A stretch of 46,500 nt of DNA from the IMG/VR virus record IMGVR_UViG_2718218452_000013; one strand, written 5' to 3'. This document shows, piece by piece, positions 98-39,639 of the stretch. The notes beneath the pieces were generated by a model. That model searched no databases, had not been told where the DNA came from, and was given only the letters and a program-made list of their open reading frames with translations. The DNA is from a virus. Its lineage: Duplodnaviria > Heunggongvirae > Uroviricota > Caudoviricetes. The translations under genes were made by a program, and so were the position numbers. Positions within the stretch are counted from its first letter, which is position 1, and each line of letters opens with the position of its first letter.

Positions 98-673
98 CTA
101 CGGTAGGGCTGGCCATTCAATATCCGGTGCAGTTGATGTATCAACACGGTTCAGCAACACCCGATACTTTTTCCAGGCTTCCAGCAACAAGGTTTCTTCC
201 TCCGTTGCGATCTCCAGATCCACAGCATCCTGAAGCGGCGCAATATGCTCACTGGCTACCTGCATCAGGCTGTTTTTTGTTTCTTCCGCCTCCCGGATCC
301 GGAACAGTTTTTCTGCTTCCGTATCCTTCACCCAGGCTGTGCCGTTCCACTTCTGATATTCCCCTCCCGGCGATAACCAGGTAACATTTTCCGGTAACGG
401 ACCGAGTTCAGAAATAAATAACGCGTCGCCGGAAGCCACGTCATAAACCGTTTTACCCCGATGATCTTCAACGAGATGCCACGATGCCTCATCACTGTTG
501 AAAACAGCCACGAAGCCTGCCGGAATATCTGGCGGTGCAATATCGATACTGTTTGCTGGCAGACCTGTATGAGGCGGAATATATGCGTCACCTTCACCAA
601 TAAATTCATTAGTTCCTGCCAGCAGATTATAAATTTTTATGGTCCGTGGTTGTTCACTCATTCTGAATGCCAT
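98..673 (-). CDS. tfa: tail fiber assembly protein Tfa
   Basis: 191-aa ORF beginning [18 protein letters not shown], recalled as lambda Tfa; start overlaps the stf stop codon. Confidence 0.85.
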
Positions 674-3593
674 TATGCAAGCCTCACAATGTAGTTAAAT
701 GCGATGTTTTTGACAGTGTTTTCCGCGTTACCAGCAGCGTTAACGGTGATGGTGTGTCCATGTGAGCCAATCGCAACAGAGTGCGTATGAGCACCAATAC
801 CGACAGTATGTGCGTGAGCACCTGCAGATGCAGCTGTGCCGCTGACACTATGAGTGTGCGCTCCTGCAGCACTTGTATTCACACTGGCCGCAGACACTAC
901 CTTATGTACTGACCCATTTTGTGACCACTGGCTGACTGCTGATGCGCCTGTGACACTATGAGTATGGTTTCCGGCACTTGCGGCTGTACCGCTCACACTG
1001 TGCGTATGCGCCCCGGTGTTATTCGTGGATTTAGTGCCGTAATCAAACGACGATGTGGTTTTCGTCCCCAAATCCGTACTGGATGCACTGGCGCTGTGGG
1101 TGTGCGATTTAATGCCGTCCTGTTCCTGAGACAATACGGCCCGACCACTGGCAGGTTTGCCCTTAATCGTCCAGCCACGCATATCAGGGATCACGCCTGA
1201 CGGATAAGCGGTTGCAAGTTTCGGGTAAGCGGATTTGTCAAAAGTCTGCCCCTGCATCAGGGCATAACCAGACGGAACGGTATCTGATGGCCACGGGATT
1301 GGTGCGCCAGGCGGATAAAACTGCTCTGATGGTGTATAGAGTGAATAAACTGTACCGTCCGTTAACCCTTCCGGCTTATTAGCAGAATATGCTGGTGACG
1401 TATGAATAGTCACGCTGGCATTACTGGTATAATCCCATTGAATATTTACACCAGTCGCATAATTTCCGATTGCAACGTAAATATCGTAAGTATCACCAGA
1501 TGTATTGACCCAGGCAAAATTTGTAAACCCTGTCGATGTGCGCTGCCATAAAGCACCAGTAATCCCCTTCGGATTACCATTACCTGCACGCAAAACAAGT
1601 TCAGATATACCTGCCTGTTGAGGTGACCCCACGTTAAATCCCGCGCCACCAATCAACGTAATTGAAACAACAGAACTCGCCTGTGGCATGGTTACCGTTG
1701 CTAATTTGAACCAACCAGCACCACCGCTGAATGACATTGTTGTTGAGTTAAGCGTACCAATATCTTTCGGCGTCAGTGTTATATCCGCTGAAAGCGCCTT
1801 ACCATTCACCTTACGGGCAGAAGGTACCCGACCATTCGCATTATCATTAGCTGCTTTCACTGCTTTCGGTGTCGCGGCAAGCGTTTCAGATGCGCTGTTG
1901 GTTGCACTACTGAGCTGGACAATTCCTTTTTGTGCTGTCGTAGCGTCCTGAGCAGTATATTTCCCGTTAGCAAGGTCATAGGCTGCCTTTACCGACTTTG
2001 GCGTTGCCGCCAGCATTTCAGATGTGCTGTTGGTCGCGCTGCTGAGCTGAACTATCCCTTTCTGTGCTGTCGTTGCATCCTGTGCGGTGTATTTCCCGTT
2101 AGCCAGCTCATACGCGGCCTTAACGGCTTTTGGCGTTGCCGCCAGTGACTCGGAAGTGCTGTTAGTCGCACTGCTGAGCTGTACTATCCCCTTTTTCGTC
2201 GTGCTCGCATCCTCAAGCGCCACGGCGGATGCAATATCCTCTGCCCGTTTTGCCGCTGTCTCGGCGCGCGTTGCCGCGGATTCCGCCGTACTTTTGCTCT
2301 GAGCTGCCGCCGTCGCACTGCCAGCTGCCTCTGTCGCCTTCGTGGATGCCGTCGTGGCGCTGCCCTTTGCTGCTGACGCCTGTCTGGTCGCCTCATCTTT
2401 TGAAGCAGACGCAGATGATGCCGATGACGCCGCCGAACTGGCGGACGATGCGGCAGCCGTTTTTGAGGATTCTGCGCTGGTTTCCGACGCTTTCGCGTTC
2501 GTCTCGGATGTCTTCGCTGCGGAAGCAGACCTCGCTGCTGCGCTGGCCTGTTCAGTGGCTTCGCCAGCCTTCGTTGTGGCTGTTGAAGCGGACGATGCGG
2601 CGCTTTCTGCCGATTTTCCGGCAGCGGTGGCACTGGCTGAGGCCTGCCCGGCACTTGTTGACGCGGCACTGGCAGACGACGCAGCCGCTGTTTTTGAGCC
2701 TGCCGCAGCTGAGGCGCTCTGTCCCGCTGCCGTCTCAGAAGACCTGGCGTTCGTCTCGGACGTTTTTGCCGCCTTCGCGGAATTTGCTGCCGCCGTTGCC
2801 GAGGAAGCTGCGCTACTGGCGCTCGAGGATGCGTTCGTTTCTGATGATTTTGCCGCCTCTTTTGAAGCCGACGCATCCCGGGCTGAGGTGGCAGCTTCTG
2901 ACGCTTTCGTGGTCGCGGTGGATGCAGAAGTGGCGGCTGATTGTTGTGACGCTGCAGCATTCGTTCTGACGTTTTCGCGGCAGCGGCACTGGTAGCTGCC
3001 GCGCTTTTTGAGGACTCTGCAGCGGCAGCACTTTTTTCCGCTTCAGTGGCCTTTGTTGATGCCGTTCCTGCGCTGGAAGACGCTGACTGAGCCGACGAAG
3101 CGGCCTGTCCGGCTGACGTGCTGGCTGCACGTGCTGAATCTGCAGCATCAGTCGCATGGGTTGCCGCCTCACGGGCAGATGTGCCGGCATCACTGGCTGA
3201 CTTCTTCGCGGCTGCCGTGTTCTGTGCCACCACGGACGCGTTACGCGCCACCTCTTCCACCATCTGTTCAAAACGGCGCAGTGCCTCCGGACGGGCATCA
3301 TCCTCCGTCATGGCACCGAGAAAATCATTCAGCGTACCCGGCTGAGAATCTTCATACACGGTGATGGTCCCGGCATGTGACGGCGGGAATCCTTCCACCA
3401 ACAGAATAACGCTGTACTGACCGTACTCAACGTCCATGCTGTAACGCCCGGCTTCATCCGGATTTTCTGAGGCCAGCGTGTTCACCACCACCGTGGTGCT
3501 GTTACGTTTTGCTTTCAGCTGGATTGTGCAGTTCTGTACCGGTTTTCCTGTGCCGTCTTTCAGTACACCTGAAATCTTTACTGCCATATTCAC
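673..3593 (-). pseudogene. stf: side tail fiber Stf, reading frame broken by a 1-nt frameshift near 2963-2966
   Basis: N-terminal about 205 codons (MAVKISGVLKDGTGKPVQNC..., lambda Stf-like) run from 3593 in one frame; the Ala/Ser/Thr-rich repeat region and C-terminal His-rich (GAHTHS) fibre tip continue to 673 in another frame. Hand translation shows ...AAAAKTSE then a shift at plus-strand gttc (TT where TTT would keep frame). Confidence 0.65.
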
Positions 3594-10095: not shown

Positions 10096-11317
10096 GTCCA
10101 CCTCCGGAGAACAGACCACCATCACGCATCTGCCCGGTCACAACATCCATTGCCGCCTTACGGGCTACGTCATAAACAGCCTTCAGCGCCTGTGGCCCTA
10201 TCTGACCGTTCGTGCCGTCGTTGTTAATCACCACATGGTTATTCTGCTCAAACGTCCCGGACGCCTGCGACCGACTGTCCGCCATGCTGCCCGGTGTACC
10301 GACATAACCGCCGGTGGCATAGCCGCGCATCAGCCGGTAAAGATTCCCCACGCCAATCCGGCTGGTTGCCTCCTTCGTGAAGACAAACTCACCACGGTGA
10401 ACAATCCCCGCTGGCTCATATTTGCCGCCGGTTCCCGTAAATCCTCCGGTTGCAAAATGGAATTTCGCCGCAGCGGCCTGAATGGCTGTACCGCCTGACG
10501 CGGATGCGCCGCCACCAACAGCCCCGCCAATGGCGCTGCCGATACTCCCGACAATCCCCACCATTGCCTGCTTAAGCAGAATTTCTGTCATCATGGACAG
10601 CACGGAACGGGTGAAGCTGCGCCAGTTCTGCTCACTGCCGGTCAGCATCGCCGCCATATTCTGTGCAATACCATCAAAGGTCTGCGTGGCTGCACTTTTT
10701 ACCTGCGACATACTGTCCGTGGCGCTCTCTTCCCACTCACTCCAGCCGGACTTCAGGCCTGCCATCCAGTTCCCGCGAAGCTGGTCTTCAGCCGCCCAGG
10801 TCTTTTTCTGCTCTGACATGACGTTATTCAGCGCCAGCGGATTATCGCCATACTGTTCCTTCAGGCGCTGTTCCGTGGCTTCCCGTTCTGCCTGCCGGTC
10901 AGTCAGCCCCCGGCTTTTCGCATCAATGGCGGCCCGTTTTGCCCGTTGCTGCTGTGCGAATTTATCCGCCTGCTGCGCCAGCGCGTTCAGGCGCTCCTGA
11001 TACGTAACCTTGTCGCCAAGTGCAGCCAGCTGGCGTTTGTACTCCAGCGTCTCATCTTTATGCGCCAGCAGGGATTTCTCCTGTGCAGACAGCTGGCGAC
11101 GTTGCGCCGCCTCCTCCAGTACCGCGAACTGACTCTCCGCCTTCCACAAATCCCGGCGCTGCTGGCTGATTTTCTCATTTGCTCCGGCATGCTTCTCCAG
11201 CGTCCGGAGTTCTGCCTGAAGCGTCAGCAGGGCAGCATGAGCACTGTCTTCCTGACGATCGCCCGCAGACACCTTCACGCCGGACTGTTTCGGCTTTTTC
11301 AGCGTCGCTTCATAATG

Positions 11318-19015
<7,698 letters not shown>

Positions 19016-36496: not shown

Positions 36497-36886
36497 TCAG
36501 GCGGCTGCACCCGCCGTTTTCTCGTACTTACTGATAGTGATCTCGACCTTCCCTTTCGGGATAACCGGTCCCCACTCCACCAGCATTCTTTTCACCTGAC
36601 TGTCGTCTTCCCACACACCCGCATGGGTCAGGGCGTCAAACAGCGCCTTGTTATAGTTGTCCAGATCGCGGATCCGGTTATCCGGAGGAAACAACACGAT
36701 CTCCACTGAAGCAGGTGCCGACGTTGGTTTCGGCAGACGACGTAACTGCTCAACTATTGCTGCGCACGCCGCGCTCTGGAATTTGCGCCCCGCTGCGCTT
36801 ATCAGACTCTTACCAGCAAACGCCCCTTTGTTGGGGTGTCGCCAGTACGTGTTCACGCTGGGCGGAAAAGGCAGGATCAGCTTCAT
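36497..36886 (-). CDS. rusA: Holliday junction resolvase RusA
   Basis: 129-aa ORF MKLILPFPPSVNTYWRHPNKGAFAGKSLISAAGRKFQ...DLDNYNKALFDALTHAGVWEDDSQV. Confidence 0.85.
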   Translation of the reverse strand: MKLILPFPPSVNTYWRHPNKGAFAGKSLISAAGRKFQSAACAAIVEQLRRLPKPTSAPASVEIVLFPPDNRIRDLDNYNKALFDALTHAGVWEDDSQVKRMLVEWGPVIPKGKVEITISKYEKTAGAAA

Positions 36887-37209: not shown

Positions 37210-37859
37210 GCCGCCATCTCCCTGACCAGTTTTTCCGCCTGCTGGCGAACCTGCGCCAGAAAGGCCTCACCACATGCCTCAAGTTCATCGCGCCCGATGT
37301 AGCTGATTGCCGGTCCCTTCCAGGTCTTGTCGAAAACAGCAATAGCACCAGCGAAGAAAGCGCCTGTCGGCACCTGCTTCTCATCCTTCGGGATAAACCA
37401 GGCAGGCAGTTCAAAACCAATACGCCCGCGAATAAAAGCAATATGGTCCGCATCTTCCGGCCACCACACTTCGCTGGTGGCAGCTTTGATCAGGAAAACA
37501 TAGCGCCCGCCCTTATCACGCATGGCACTGGCATGTTTCATGATGTAACGCATGCCGGTGATGTATTGCCCCTCATGCTGACTGGCGCGGCTGTATGGGG
37601 GATTACCAAAGGCAGCACCTTTAAGCTCCGCAAGACGTTCTGACCAGTCATGCGCCAGCGCGTTGTCTTCCGCCGTGTAATACGCGGCACATTTGGCGTT
37701 ATCACCGTCAGTAAACAGATCCAGAACAAACGGGCCAAACAGGGTGTTAATTCCCCAGAAAATGTTGTCCGGTGTGCGCCACTGATCGCCCACTTCCTTC
37801 AGTTCATGGGCTGGTTTGTTTCGCAACTCCACCAGCGCCTGGCAATATTTATTACTCAT
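37206..37859 (-). CDS. phage DNA N6-adenine methyltransferase (Dam-like)
   Basis: ATG at 37859 (MSNKYCQALVELRNK...), NPPY catalytic motif (AFGNPPYSRA); start overlaps the upstream stop (TAATG). Confidence 0.8.
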   Translation of the reverse strand: MSNKYCQALVELRNKPAHELKEVGDQWRTPDNIFWGINTLFGPFVLDLFTDGDNAKCAAYYTAEDNALAHDWSERLAELKGAAFGNPPYSRASQHEGQYITGMRYIMKHASAMRDKGGRYVFLIKAATSEVWWPEDADHIAFIRGRIGFELPAWFIPKDEKQVPTGAFFAGAIAVFDKTWKGPAISYIGRDELEACGEAFLAQVRQQAEKLVREMAA

Positions 37860-38353
37860 TAAGCCCCCACGTAATTCCCTGACAGATACCACTCTTCACC
37901 CGATGCAGCGCGCTTGCTGCTTTTCCGTAAGCACCGCTCACGACGCGCCAGAAAATTGTTTCGTTCTGGCTGGGAGTGGCTTTCACGGAATGCCGCCATC
38001 CACACCGTTGCAGCACGACGGTATAAGCCCCTGGACTCCAGTTCTTCAGCCTGGCGGGTCAGGCACAAAATCACCCGTGGATCGTTAGTGCCGACATAGA
38101 AATTGCGCACAGGTCTGGTTTCTCGAACTGGTTGTGGTTCCGGTTCCTGCGCTCTCTCAGTCAGGCGCGGGAAATGTCTGCGTGTATCTCCTTCACAACG
38201 GTGAGCCACACGCCCACTCTGACGTAACTTGCTTGCTGACTGCAGAACGCGCTGCCGTGAGTAACCTGCAAAAGCATCCGCAATGTCTCCGGAAGTACAT
38301 CCCGGATGGGCTTCAATGAATTTCTGAACTTCATTCAAAAGACTCATGATCAC
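37859..38353 (-). CDS. putative transcriptional regulator with PerC-like C-terminal region
   Basis: 164-aa ORF; C-terminal ...AEELESRGLYRRAATVWMAAFRESHSQPERNNFLARRERCL resembles the PerC/Pch motif; assignment by motif only. Confidence 0.45.
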   Translation of the reverse strand: MIMSLLNEVQKFIEAHPGCTSGDIADAFAGYSRQRVLQSASKLRQSGRVAHRCEGDTRRHFPRLTERAQEPEPQPVRETRPVRNFYVGTNDPRVILCLTRQAEELESRGLYRRAATVWMAAFRESHSQPERNNFLARRERCLRKSSKRAASGEEWYLSGNYVGA

Positions 38354-39265
38354 CCCCTGAATCCTGCCGGGATCTGGCTGTAGTCCACGTTGTCGTAACT
38401 GGATTTGAAGTACGGGTCTTCGCGTTTTTCGGTGTACGTGCTGACGGACGGTGATAAGCGCAGGGAAAGCTCATCCCATTTTTCCCGCAACTTCGACGGG
38501 CTGAGCACGTTACGGCACCAGAACGGATCGCGGCTGACGCGGCTGTACATCTCGCAGATTTGTTTGTGAGTACGACCATCCTGCACACACATCAGGCGAA
38601 TTTCGTTTGCCCAGGCTGTCCAGTTCGGTTCTTTGGGACGAACCACCTCGCCGTCACATTCGGCGGCTTGCTCGTACAGGGCGATGATTTTTTTCCAGAG
38701 CCACTGTGCGCAGGTCAAATCATCCTGCGTTCCCCACTGGCGCTTTTTAGGGCTGAATACAACCGCATCAGGATGGCGAGTTAAAAAATCCTGTTCATCC
38801 GTCTGCGTGTCCGGTTGCGAAGCGTCCGGACGAGAAGGTTTTTTATCTGACGGATCATGTTTTGATTTTACTGACGGATCCCCGCCAGATTCTGACGGGT
38901 GAAAACCCGCTTTTTTGCCAGATTTCGACGCATCAAATTTTGACGGGTCAGATTTTGATGCGTCAGATTTTGACGGGTCAGAATCTGACAGTTGAGAAAA
39001 TGCCGCTGCCTGGAAGCTTCGCAACGTTAAGCTGATAAACATTCGACGCATTGCGGTTACCCTGGCGACGCGCCTTACGCGTTAACCAGCCTTCTGCTTC
39101 CAGCCGTGCGATAGCCGTCCTGACGGTACTCATCCCCGCGCCAATCTGACAGGCAATGGTTTCAATTGATGGCCAGCACACACCTTCGTCATTACTGAAA
39201 TCAGCCAGGCGGGCCATAATTGCCACGCTGGATAATTCATGCCTGATGCAGCGCAACCATCCCAT
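38350..39265 (-). pseudogene. replication initiator O-like protein, split between two frames near the iteron array
   Basis: N-terminal HTH ORF (38978..39265; ...RLEAEGWLTRKARRQGNRNASNVYQLNV) and C-terminal ORF (38350..39051) overlap in different frames; the iteron-encoded SKSD repeats fall at the junction; plus-strand A4 run at 38997..39000 is the likely frameshift site. Confidence 0.6.
38840..38992. repeat. replication origin iterons (about 6 direct repeats of a 16-17-bp unit, consensus tcAGATTTTGACGgg) inside the O-like gene
   Basis: direct repeats ccagattctgacggg / cagatttcgacgcatc / caaattttgacgggtc / cagattttgatgcgtc / cagattttgacgggtc / cagaatctgacag. Confidence 0.75.
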
Positions 39266-39300
39266 ACATAGCCGGTTAATTTAGTGCTCATGACCGACCT

Positions 39301-39639
39301 CTATTTCCCTGAATTTACGACGAAACTGTTCGAGCGGGCTGAAGCACTCATGCTCATAGCCTTCGCGGAGGTAGATAACTCGTTGTGTTTCCGGCTCCCA
39401 ACGAATGACTCTGACGGGTACTCCGTAGTGATCTTTGAACCAGCGGTTAACTTGTCGCAAAGGACTGTCTCCTTCTGCCGGTTAAAATCACCCACAGCCC
39501 ACTCTGCAAAGCTGTGGGTTACAATTACCCTGCCACCTGGTACATTAACTGCATAGCAATACTCCACCTTCGCTTTTCCACCCGGTACAGGAAGCGCAAT
39601 CAGTTGCGAGCGACGGTAGTGTGTTGTTAAACTGTTCAT
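39301..39639 (-). CDS. hypothetical phage protein (e14 YmfM-like by size and position)
   Basis: 112-aa ORF whose start overlaps the upstream gene stop; an antisense + ORF (39284..39556) also exists; strand chosen by synteny. Confidence 0.45.

Follow-up and report, generated by a model that had tools for sequence, protein, structure and literature searches.

A lambda-O-type replication initiator gene with internal iterons, interrupted by two single-base frameshifts of opposite sign in the sequence of a lambdoid prophage

The initiator gene examined here belongs to a lambdoid prophage located at the DLP12 (argU/intD) site and encodes a lambda-O-type replication protein. In the 46,500-nucleotide stretch of viral DNA that was analysed (IMG/VR record IMGVR_UViG_2718218452_000013, referred to below as the window), this gene is interrupted by a 1-nt deletion and a 1-nt insertion, which displace the frame of its DNA-binding part. 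The locus is almost certainly a disrupted gene of a single open reading frame (ORF) rather than a natural two-ORF design, and a real mutation is, on balance, the favoured explanation of the disruption. The gene family and its arrangement are already well known, and the double frameshift is private to the window.

Layout of the locus

The ORF list of the minus strand contains a 95-aa ORF with the helix-turn-helix (HTH) part and a 233-aa ORF with the C-terminal part, which lie in different frames and overlap, as a first-pass annotation made from the sequence had correctly described. That annotation let the N-terminal piece begin at 39265 and missed the real start, ATG 39291, which shares its frame with the C-terminal ORF; only codons 19-93 are displaced. 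The extent of the gene from 39291 to 38350 is based on alignment to the WP_000104954.1 genes of Escherichia coli 2013C-4187 and FWSEC0007. The gene, its fragments and its immediate neighbors are as follows.

38350..39291, minus strand: full initiator gene, 942 nt, coding in its intact form for 313 aa and a stop; in the window a pseudogene with two frameshifts
39130..39291, minus strand: product expected from the true start, with 18 native residues, 35 out-of-frame residues and a stop (ORF list, repair translation)
38978..39265, minus strand: 95-aa HTH ORF, with 9 foreign residues, native residues 19-93 and an 11-residue foreign tail
38350..39051, minus strand: 233-aa C-terminal ORF, with 13 foreign residues ahead of native residues 94-313
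37859..38353, minus strand: PerC-family gene, yfdN-like, overlapping the initiator stop by 4 nt (GTGA), in the slot held by P in lambda
39281..39460, minus strand: DUF4222 gene, 59 aa, RefSeq-annotated, overlapping the initiator start by 11 nt

A third ORF, of 53 aa, runs from ATG 39291 to the stop at 39130 and opens with the residues MSTKLTGYVWDGCAASGM; translation from 39291 ends after these 53 codons. A GAGG motif is located 6 nt 5' of this ATG. The ATG at 39265 of the 95-aa ORF is without a Shine-Dalgarno sequence and lies 26 nt inside the frame opened at 39291, while the best motif available to the 233-aa ORF is AGGG, about 9 nt 5' of its ATG. Neither the HTH ORF nor the C-terminal ORF has a convincing ribosome-binding site.

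According to Pfam scans and RefSeq, the genes on the 3' side of the initiator are, in order, PerC, a methyltransferase, a LexA-like gene, and RusA. On the upstream side, a second candidate gene, a 112-aa ORF (39301-39639, minus strand), overlaps the DUF4222 ORF and has an end-to-end match to phrog_1170; some phage records place a "putative protein YmfM" in this same region.

The two single-base lesions

The alignment to the intact allele locates the two frameshifts at the following positions.

39236..39237, minus strand: frameshift 1, a 1-nt deletion, ATGAAATTA to ATGAATTA, AAA to AA, in codon 19 (alignment)
39012..39013, minus strand: frameshift 2, a 1-nt insertion, GCTTCAGG to GCTTCCAGG, with the original frame regained after codon 93 (alignment)

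Read on the plus strand, the TTT of the reference is TT in the window (39236-39237), and its single G is GG (39012-39013). Base-by-base alignment gives four differences from the intact allele, namely these two indels and substitutions at 39151 and 39158. The indels are 224 nt apart and of opposite sign, and the gene length stays at 942 nt. Repair of both restores a 313-aa protein whose sole difference is R48C. The displaced segment is the winged-helix DNA-binding part, which is readable in the shifted frame only.

These positions modify the earlier picture of the break. The first-pass annotation had been right that the gene is frameshifted, but two lesions are present rather than one, and neither lies in the A4 run at 38997-39000 where a single lesion had been sought. 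An extra base in that run, which had been expected to fuse the two ORFs, would give a nonsense frame, whereas removal of one base would fuse them. Nor does the break coincide with the iteron array, since the insertion is 23 nt upstream of the first iteron and outside the array; the only overlap of the HTH ORF with the array is its stop codon, in iteron 1. Repeat slippage was considered as a cause of the frameshifts and is ruled out, as both indels fall outside the array and the array is base-for-base the same as in intact alleles.

A further suggestion, that the initiator might genuinely consist of two polypeptides, is contradicted by the homologs, each of which, as far as checked, is one ORF. 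The comparison that had been proposed with O homologs, covering the e14 and CPS-53 relics and intact phages, reveals no instance of the two-ORF arrangement. A programmed recoding, in which a +1 shift near 39237 and a -1 shift near 39013 would yield the full-length protein, has in its favour that the net frame is restored, and nothing else. It would require two opposite shifts, while none of the homologs has either indel and each is read in a single frame. A conserved slippery site is not to be expected in a sequence context found only in the window, and recoding, whose probability is regarded as negligible, is effectively refuted by this lack of conservation.

Protein family and domains

The assignment to the lambda O type is based on profile and pairwise comparisons of the repaired protein, in which two domains are distinguished.

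39083..39226, minus strand: winged-helix DNA-binding domain, Pfam HTH_36 (PF13730), repaired residues 23-70 (Pfam)
38461..38784, minus strand: C-terminal domain, homolog of the corresponding lambda O domain (BLASTP)

A domain search on the repaired protein, which had been recommended at the outset, returned HTH_36 with E=4e-11 (1.6e-10 on the 95-aa ORF) and an end-to-end match of residues 1-313 to phrog_391, "replication initiation O-like", covering profile positions 1-298 of 298 with E=1.2e-135. Phage_rep_O (PF04492) gave no match in the repaired protein at E<=0.1, compared with 5.7e-36 for lambda O itself; the N-terminal domain thus differs from that of lambda O in being HTH_36 and not Phage_rep_O. 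The C-terminal domain, in contrast to the head, shares homology with its lambda O counterpart. The BLASTP alignment between the two proteins (E=7e-26, 31% identity, residues 70-277, 216 columns) spans the linker and the whole C-terminal domain, and the initiator C-terminal domain matches lambda O residues from about 180 to 270, the P-interacting half. In this alignment, PDAVVFS..KRQWGTQDDLTCAQW...RPKEPNWTAWANEIRLM..DGRTHKQIC...FWCRNVLSPSKLREKWDEL of the initiator is set against PDAAIQS..SKWGTAEDLTAAEW...RKPNFAGWANDIRLM..DGRNHRDMC...FWSGNVLSPAKLRDKWTQL of lambda O. An AlphaFold model of the C-terminal domain is a helical bundle with a pLDDT of ~90 over query residues 41-130. This domain is kept behind at least three different N-terminal domains.

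The intact form of the gene is widespread. WP_000104954.1 (942 nt, 313 aa) is the gene in E. coli 2013C-4187 and in O103:H2 FWSEC0007, and about half of the complete E. coli genomes carry the gene, under the name "replication protein O / primosomal protein".

Iterons and the origin inside the gene

The linker-coding part of the gene contains a repeat array followed by an AT-rich stretch.

38884-38989, minus strand: six 13-bp sites with GTCA/TGAC arms (TRF, motif scan), at 38989-38977, 38974-38962, 38959-38947, 38944-38932, 38929-38917, and 38896-38884
38840..38879, minus strand: AT-rich stretch with the gene's GC minimum of 0.325, the presumed unwinding region, directly 3' of the array

About six direct iterons of 16-17 bp had been described in the first pass. 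The number of six sites stands, but the period reported by TRF is 15 bp, with a 30-bp super-period scoring slightly better; five sites are in tandem at 15-bp spacing and the sixth is 33 bp further on. Each iteron consists of GTCA/TGAC arms around a 5-bp A/T-rich center. A scan of the 46.5-kb window for the motif GTCAAAATCTGAC with up to 2 mismatches found 7 matches at 6 sites, all within 38884-38989, against 1.18 expected by chance, and none of 100 shuffles reached 7; the iteron excess over chance is 6-fold, with all of it in one 106-bp stretch. As had also been recognized earlier, the repeats encode a repetitive linker in the downstream frame, which reads DSDPSKSDASKSDPSKFDASKSG.

The AT-rich stretch at 38840-38879 includes two CCGTCAG half-sites, and its relative position matches that of the AT-rich region in ori-lambda. 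Between iterons 5 and 6, at 38896-38919 on the plus strand, a small GC hairpin with a T-run behind it (CGGGTGAAAACCCG CTTTTTTGCC) has the look of a terminator, in the direction antisense to the initiator gene. A literature search on yfdO, oweS, oweE, and ymfN found nothing on the origin.

The 13-bp repeats behave as iterons, and the strongest evidence for this comes from two domain swaps. In the Rep of Citrobacter phage phiNP, this head and these 15-bp repeats are joined to an unrelated C-terminal domain (Phg_2220_C). Conversely, phage mEp460_4F5 combines the same C-terminal domain with a different head, and in place of the array lie 4-5 lambda-like repeats of ~23 bp, CATCGGGTCAAAATGnCCC. The type of repeat thus goes with the DNA-binding head, as expected of cognate sites. 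In the mEp460_4F5 allele (L010 2886-3062), an AT-rich 12-bp triple repeat follows the CATCGGGTCAAAATGnCCC repeats.

The earlier view of a lambda-O-like initiator gene with internal origin repeats is supported. Like the window gene, lambda O is a two-domain initiator with iterons and then an AT-rich stretch in the linker-coding part of its gene; it is also located downstream of cro/cII-like genes, and its stop overlaps the next start by 4 nt. The sites themselves are different: lambda has four, annotated at 18 bp and lying 20-24 bp apart, whereas the window has six of 13 bp, five of them at 15-bp spacing. The number of iterons varies among lambdoid origins, and that of Stx phages has six iterons of 19 bp (PMC7466680). 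The Stx-phage O resembles the window in having six sites and differs from it in being a true lambda-type O, with 19-bp iterons and with P present (PMC7466680).

With the head, the iterons, and the lesions defined, a functional split can be assessed, in which the 95-aa HTH fragment would be expressed, with or without the 233-aa fragment, and would bind the iterons, serving either in a bipartite initiator or to exclude related phages by blocking their origins. The HTH_36 domain is complete within the 95-aa ORF, the iterons are intact, and the indels bracket the HTH domain rather neatly. Against this, the fragment would have to start at an ATG with no Shine-Dalgarno sequence inside the frame of the strong start at 39291, and the arrangement occurs in no homolog among thousands of copies. 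Moreover, the precedent of lambda O is that a recruiter requires its DNA-binding domain to be linked to its recruiting domain. A functional split is consequently considered very unlikely. Were the double frameshift real and retained, the freed 95-aa winged helix might occupy the GTCAAAATCTGAC iterons of incoming SfII/SfIV/Kati-type phages and exclude them by blocking their origins, which is a very improbable role.

Mutation or artefact

The occurrence of the lesions elsewhere was examined at several levels. Megablast of positions 38300-39350 against 5,426 complete E. coli genomes found the stretch in 2,724 of them, and the best matches show one "helix-turn-helix domain-containing protein" between the DUF4222 gene and the PerC/yfdN gene. 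A short query centered on the insertion matched 2,117 places in 1,920 E. coli genomes, and one centered on the deletion matched 2,015 places in 1,833, in neither case with an identity of 99% or more; every E. coli copy is therefore without the indel. The deletion junction had no exact match in IMG/VR and none among 120 fetched IMG/VR loci, and the insertion junction had none in the GTDB species representative genomes or in the JGI metagenomes, while the intact junction, used as a positive control, was recovered in at least 120 IMG/VR contigs. None of the three ORF products has an exact counterpart in a 15-billion-protein collection.

Several observations are in favour of a real mutation. At the corresponding position, E. 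coli 2013C-4187, FWSEC0007, and OkiPb01675 each have an intact single ORF of 942 nt, and the phages SfIV and Kati also have an intact single ORF. Positions 17330-46500 of the window are colinear with the DLP12-site (argU/intD...ompT) prophage of OkiPb01675, with 14 substitutions and 2 indels, and both of these indels over 29 kb fall in the initiator gene; comparison with FWSEC0007 over 22.5 kb yields 13 substitutions and the same 2 indels. With 14 substitutions and no further indel over 29 kb, there is no general indel noise in the sequence. The runs at the two indels are short (A3 and C1), which is not typical of homopolymer error.

The tail genes of the same prophage are also irregular. A 2,725-bp direct repeat with 100% identity (11316-14040 = 14607-17331, with junctions at 11316/7, 14607/8, and 17331/2) sets two partial J/lom tail-gene copies inside the tape-measure gene and creates an in-frame tape-measure::J fusion ORF at 14867..18607, of 1,246 aa. 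None of the complete E. coli genomes spans the tape-measure/J junction at 17331, and the 11316-17331 segment is either a private rearrangement or a misassembly. The tail-fibre gene at 673-3593 (minus strand) is split into overlapping ORFs of 516 and 469 aa, and its OkiPb01675 counterpart is annotated as frameshifted. The interrupted tape-measure gene and the split tail-fibre gene, counted as other decay, favour a real mutation of the initiator gene.

The competing explanation is a consensus or assembly artefact, according to which the gene would be intact in the organism and the indels would have arisen from mixed reads of paralogous prophages during assembly or polishing. Neither indel is found in any of the approximately 1,900 E. 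coli genomes carrying the stretch, so nothing points to their being inherited, and the searches of IMG/VR for the deletion, of the GTDB representatives and JGI metagenomes for the insertion, and of the protein collection for the exact ORF products point the same way. The sole 2 indels in 29 kb lie close together and have opposite signs, by which the exact length of 942 nt is kept. They flank a two-SNP patch belonging to another allele, for the substitutions at 39151 and 39158 occur jointly in the second gene copy of E. coli C7, a natural allele, and the deletion itself is at a site where some alleles read AAA and others AAG. Such an A/G allele-variant site is a pattern that consensus calling over mixed paralogous reads can give, and many E. 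coli genomes hold several copies of the stretch, at up to 4-6 places each. The 2,725-bp repeat, private to the window and with junctions found in no other genome, could likewise be a misassembly. On the other side, an artefact has to contend with the absence of any further indel in the remaining 29 kb relative to the closest relative, with the very short runs, and with the real frameshifts that other prophages have in their initiator gene. An artefact is accordingly a quite plausible account of the disruption, and a real mutation is placed slightly ahead of it.

Substitutions relative to the nearest relatives are also clustered elsewhere in the window, with 3 in 12 bp (36863-36874) and 4 in 55 bp (37773-37827) in addition to the 2 in 8 bp at 39151-39158. 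These clusters look like short patches of recombination or gene conversion from paralogous prophage alleles.

Variation among copies and related systems

Among the 111 IMG/VR copies that are not cut by a contig end, 95 encode 313 aa, and another 7 are full-length with more or fewer whole 15-bp units, giving 308, 318, or 323 aa. The remaining 9 (about 8%) are independently disrupted by 1-nt frameshifts, an insertion in the array, deletions, or fusions. Other 1-nt frameshifts are present in L023, L065, and L112, an insertion inside the iterons in L017, and a deletion in L125 fuses the initiator to the end of PerC; loci with altered iteron copy number or disruption also include L018, L036, L047, L048, L060, L081, and L087. 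In addition, a 285-aa Klebsiella protein (P0120) is a homolog that is apparently frameshifted, its iteron region being read in another frame (LTRQNLTHQNLNRQNLM).

The gene of the window is known, at 98-99% DNA identity, as orf41 ("replication / primosomal protein") of SfII and SfIV, in Kati, and as oweS/oweE in E. coli K-12. The phages and the K-12 relics have the iterons, and the PerC (yfdN) gene on the downstream side, in common with the window. The copies in SfII, SfIV, and Kati are intact single ORFs, whereas the window copy is of full length and shifted twice. The K-12 copies are deletion remnants, the C-terminal part being retained as oweS (yfdO, in CPS-53) and the N-terminal part as oweE (ymfN, in e14).

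Absence of a loader gene and the C-terminal tail

Where lambda has P as the next gene, the window has the PerC-family gene, and the earlier observation that a PerC-like gene follows without any P/DnaC-like loader agrees with Pfam and RefSeq. No helicase or loader genes are listed between the integrase and Q in the RefSeq annotation of the colinear prophages, and Pfam results for the neighbors agree. This absence had been read as a possible sign of a defective prophage. That reading does not hold, because SfIV, SfII, and Kati are viable with the same layout of O followed by PerC. SfIV has a single 313-aa ORF, then PerC, then a LexA-like gene, with Kati and SfII being alike, and SfIV is UV-induced, forms plaques, and is propagated lytically (PMC3851460). 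The lack of P/DnaC is normal for an O-only module. A 2025 article on lambdoid phages (PMC12315714) reports 34 of 314 as having only an O homolog and calls O-only replication not studied or not understood; in modules such as that of phage LLS the O homolog stands alone, with no helicase or loader, as in the window.

Relatives of the C-terminal domain differ in what follows them. A lambda P homolog is next in L132 (Serratia symbiotica) and L134, and an IstB/DnaC-like AAA+ gene (IstB_IS21) is next in L136, a Rac-like YdaS/YdaT module; no loader follows in the window's own family, L133, L135, L137, L218, and L219/L220. The C-terminal domains of the Serratia symbiotica and Logan contigs, with lambda P or a Rac-like module, are 53-73% identical to that of the window. 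The loader-paired O-like proteins differ from the window protein in being followed by a Phage_lambda_P or IstB_IS21 gene and in their extreme C-terminal tails.

The tails were compared over 10 contexts, comprising 9 loci and the window's own family. The tail is EAW(E/G)NTL in the two P-linked proteins (L132 and L134), and IPxGFRG or a close variant in most relatives with a DnaC-like gene or without a loader. A search for related loci with the C-terminal-domain alignment returned only copies of 98-100% identity, with no diversity for the tail comparison. In the window, positions 38350-38380 encode the initiator tail, and among relatives the extreme C-terminus tracks the downstream partner; the phiNP Rep, with its unrelated C-terminal domain, has a similar end, VDYSLPENSGFRS. 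From this small sample, the C-terminal tail may be a docking peptide for the host DnaB-DnaC complex.

Proposed working of the module and its implications

By analogy with ori-lambda and from the features described above, the module would work in three steps. The N-terminal winged helix would bind the six GTCAAAATCTGAC-type iterons in the linker-coding part of its own gene, as suggested by the repeats travelling with this domain. The flanking AT-rich stretch would then presumably be opened, and the C-terminal domain, whose homology to lambda O is clear, would be the putative recruiter of the helicase. Use of the host DnaB-DnaC complex is proposed because the module has no P or DnaC gene, and the small sample of relatives points weakly to recruitment of this complex by O-only modules in general.

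In the window, the cis-acting origin would be intact and the trans-acting initiator lost; if the sequence is correct, there is most likely no functional initiator beside the intact origin. Provided that the bases are right, the prophage is unable to initiate replication by itself, and no replication would be expected on induction, a defect that fits a prophage also rearranged in its tail genes. For annotation, one pseudogene should be recorded here, not two genes.

The wider puzzle is that a common initiator with the lambda O C-terminal domain, which binds P in lambda, is found in a module without a P/DnaC-type loader. The conserved IPxGFRG tail of O-only modules may dock the host DnaB-DnaC complex directly and, if this is true, it would account for the replication of these phages in the absence of a phage-encoded loader. 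SfIV and Kati are convenient models for the study of O-only replication.
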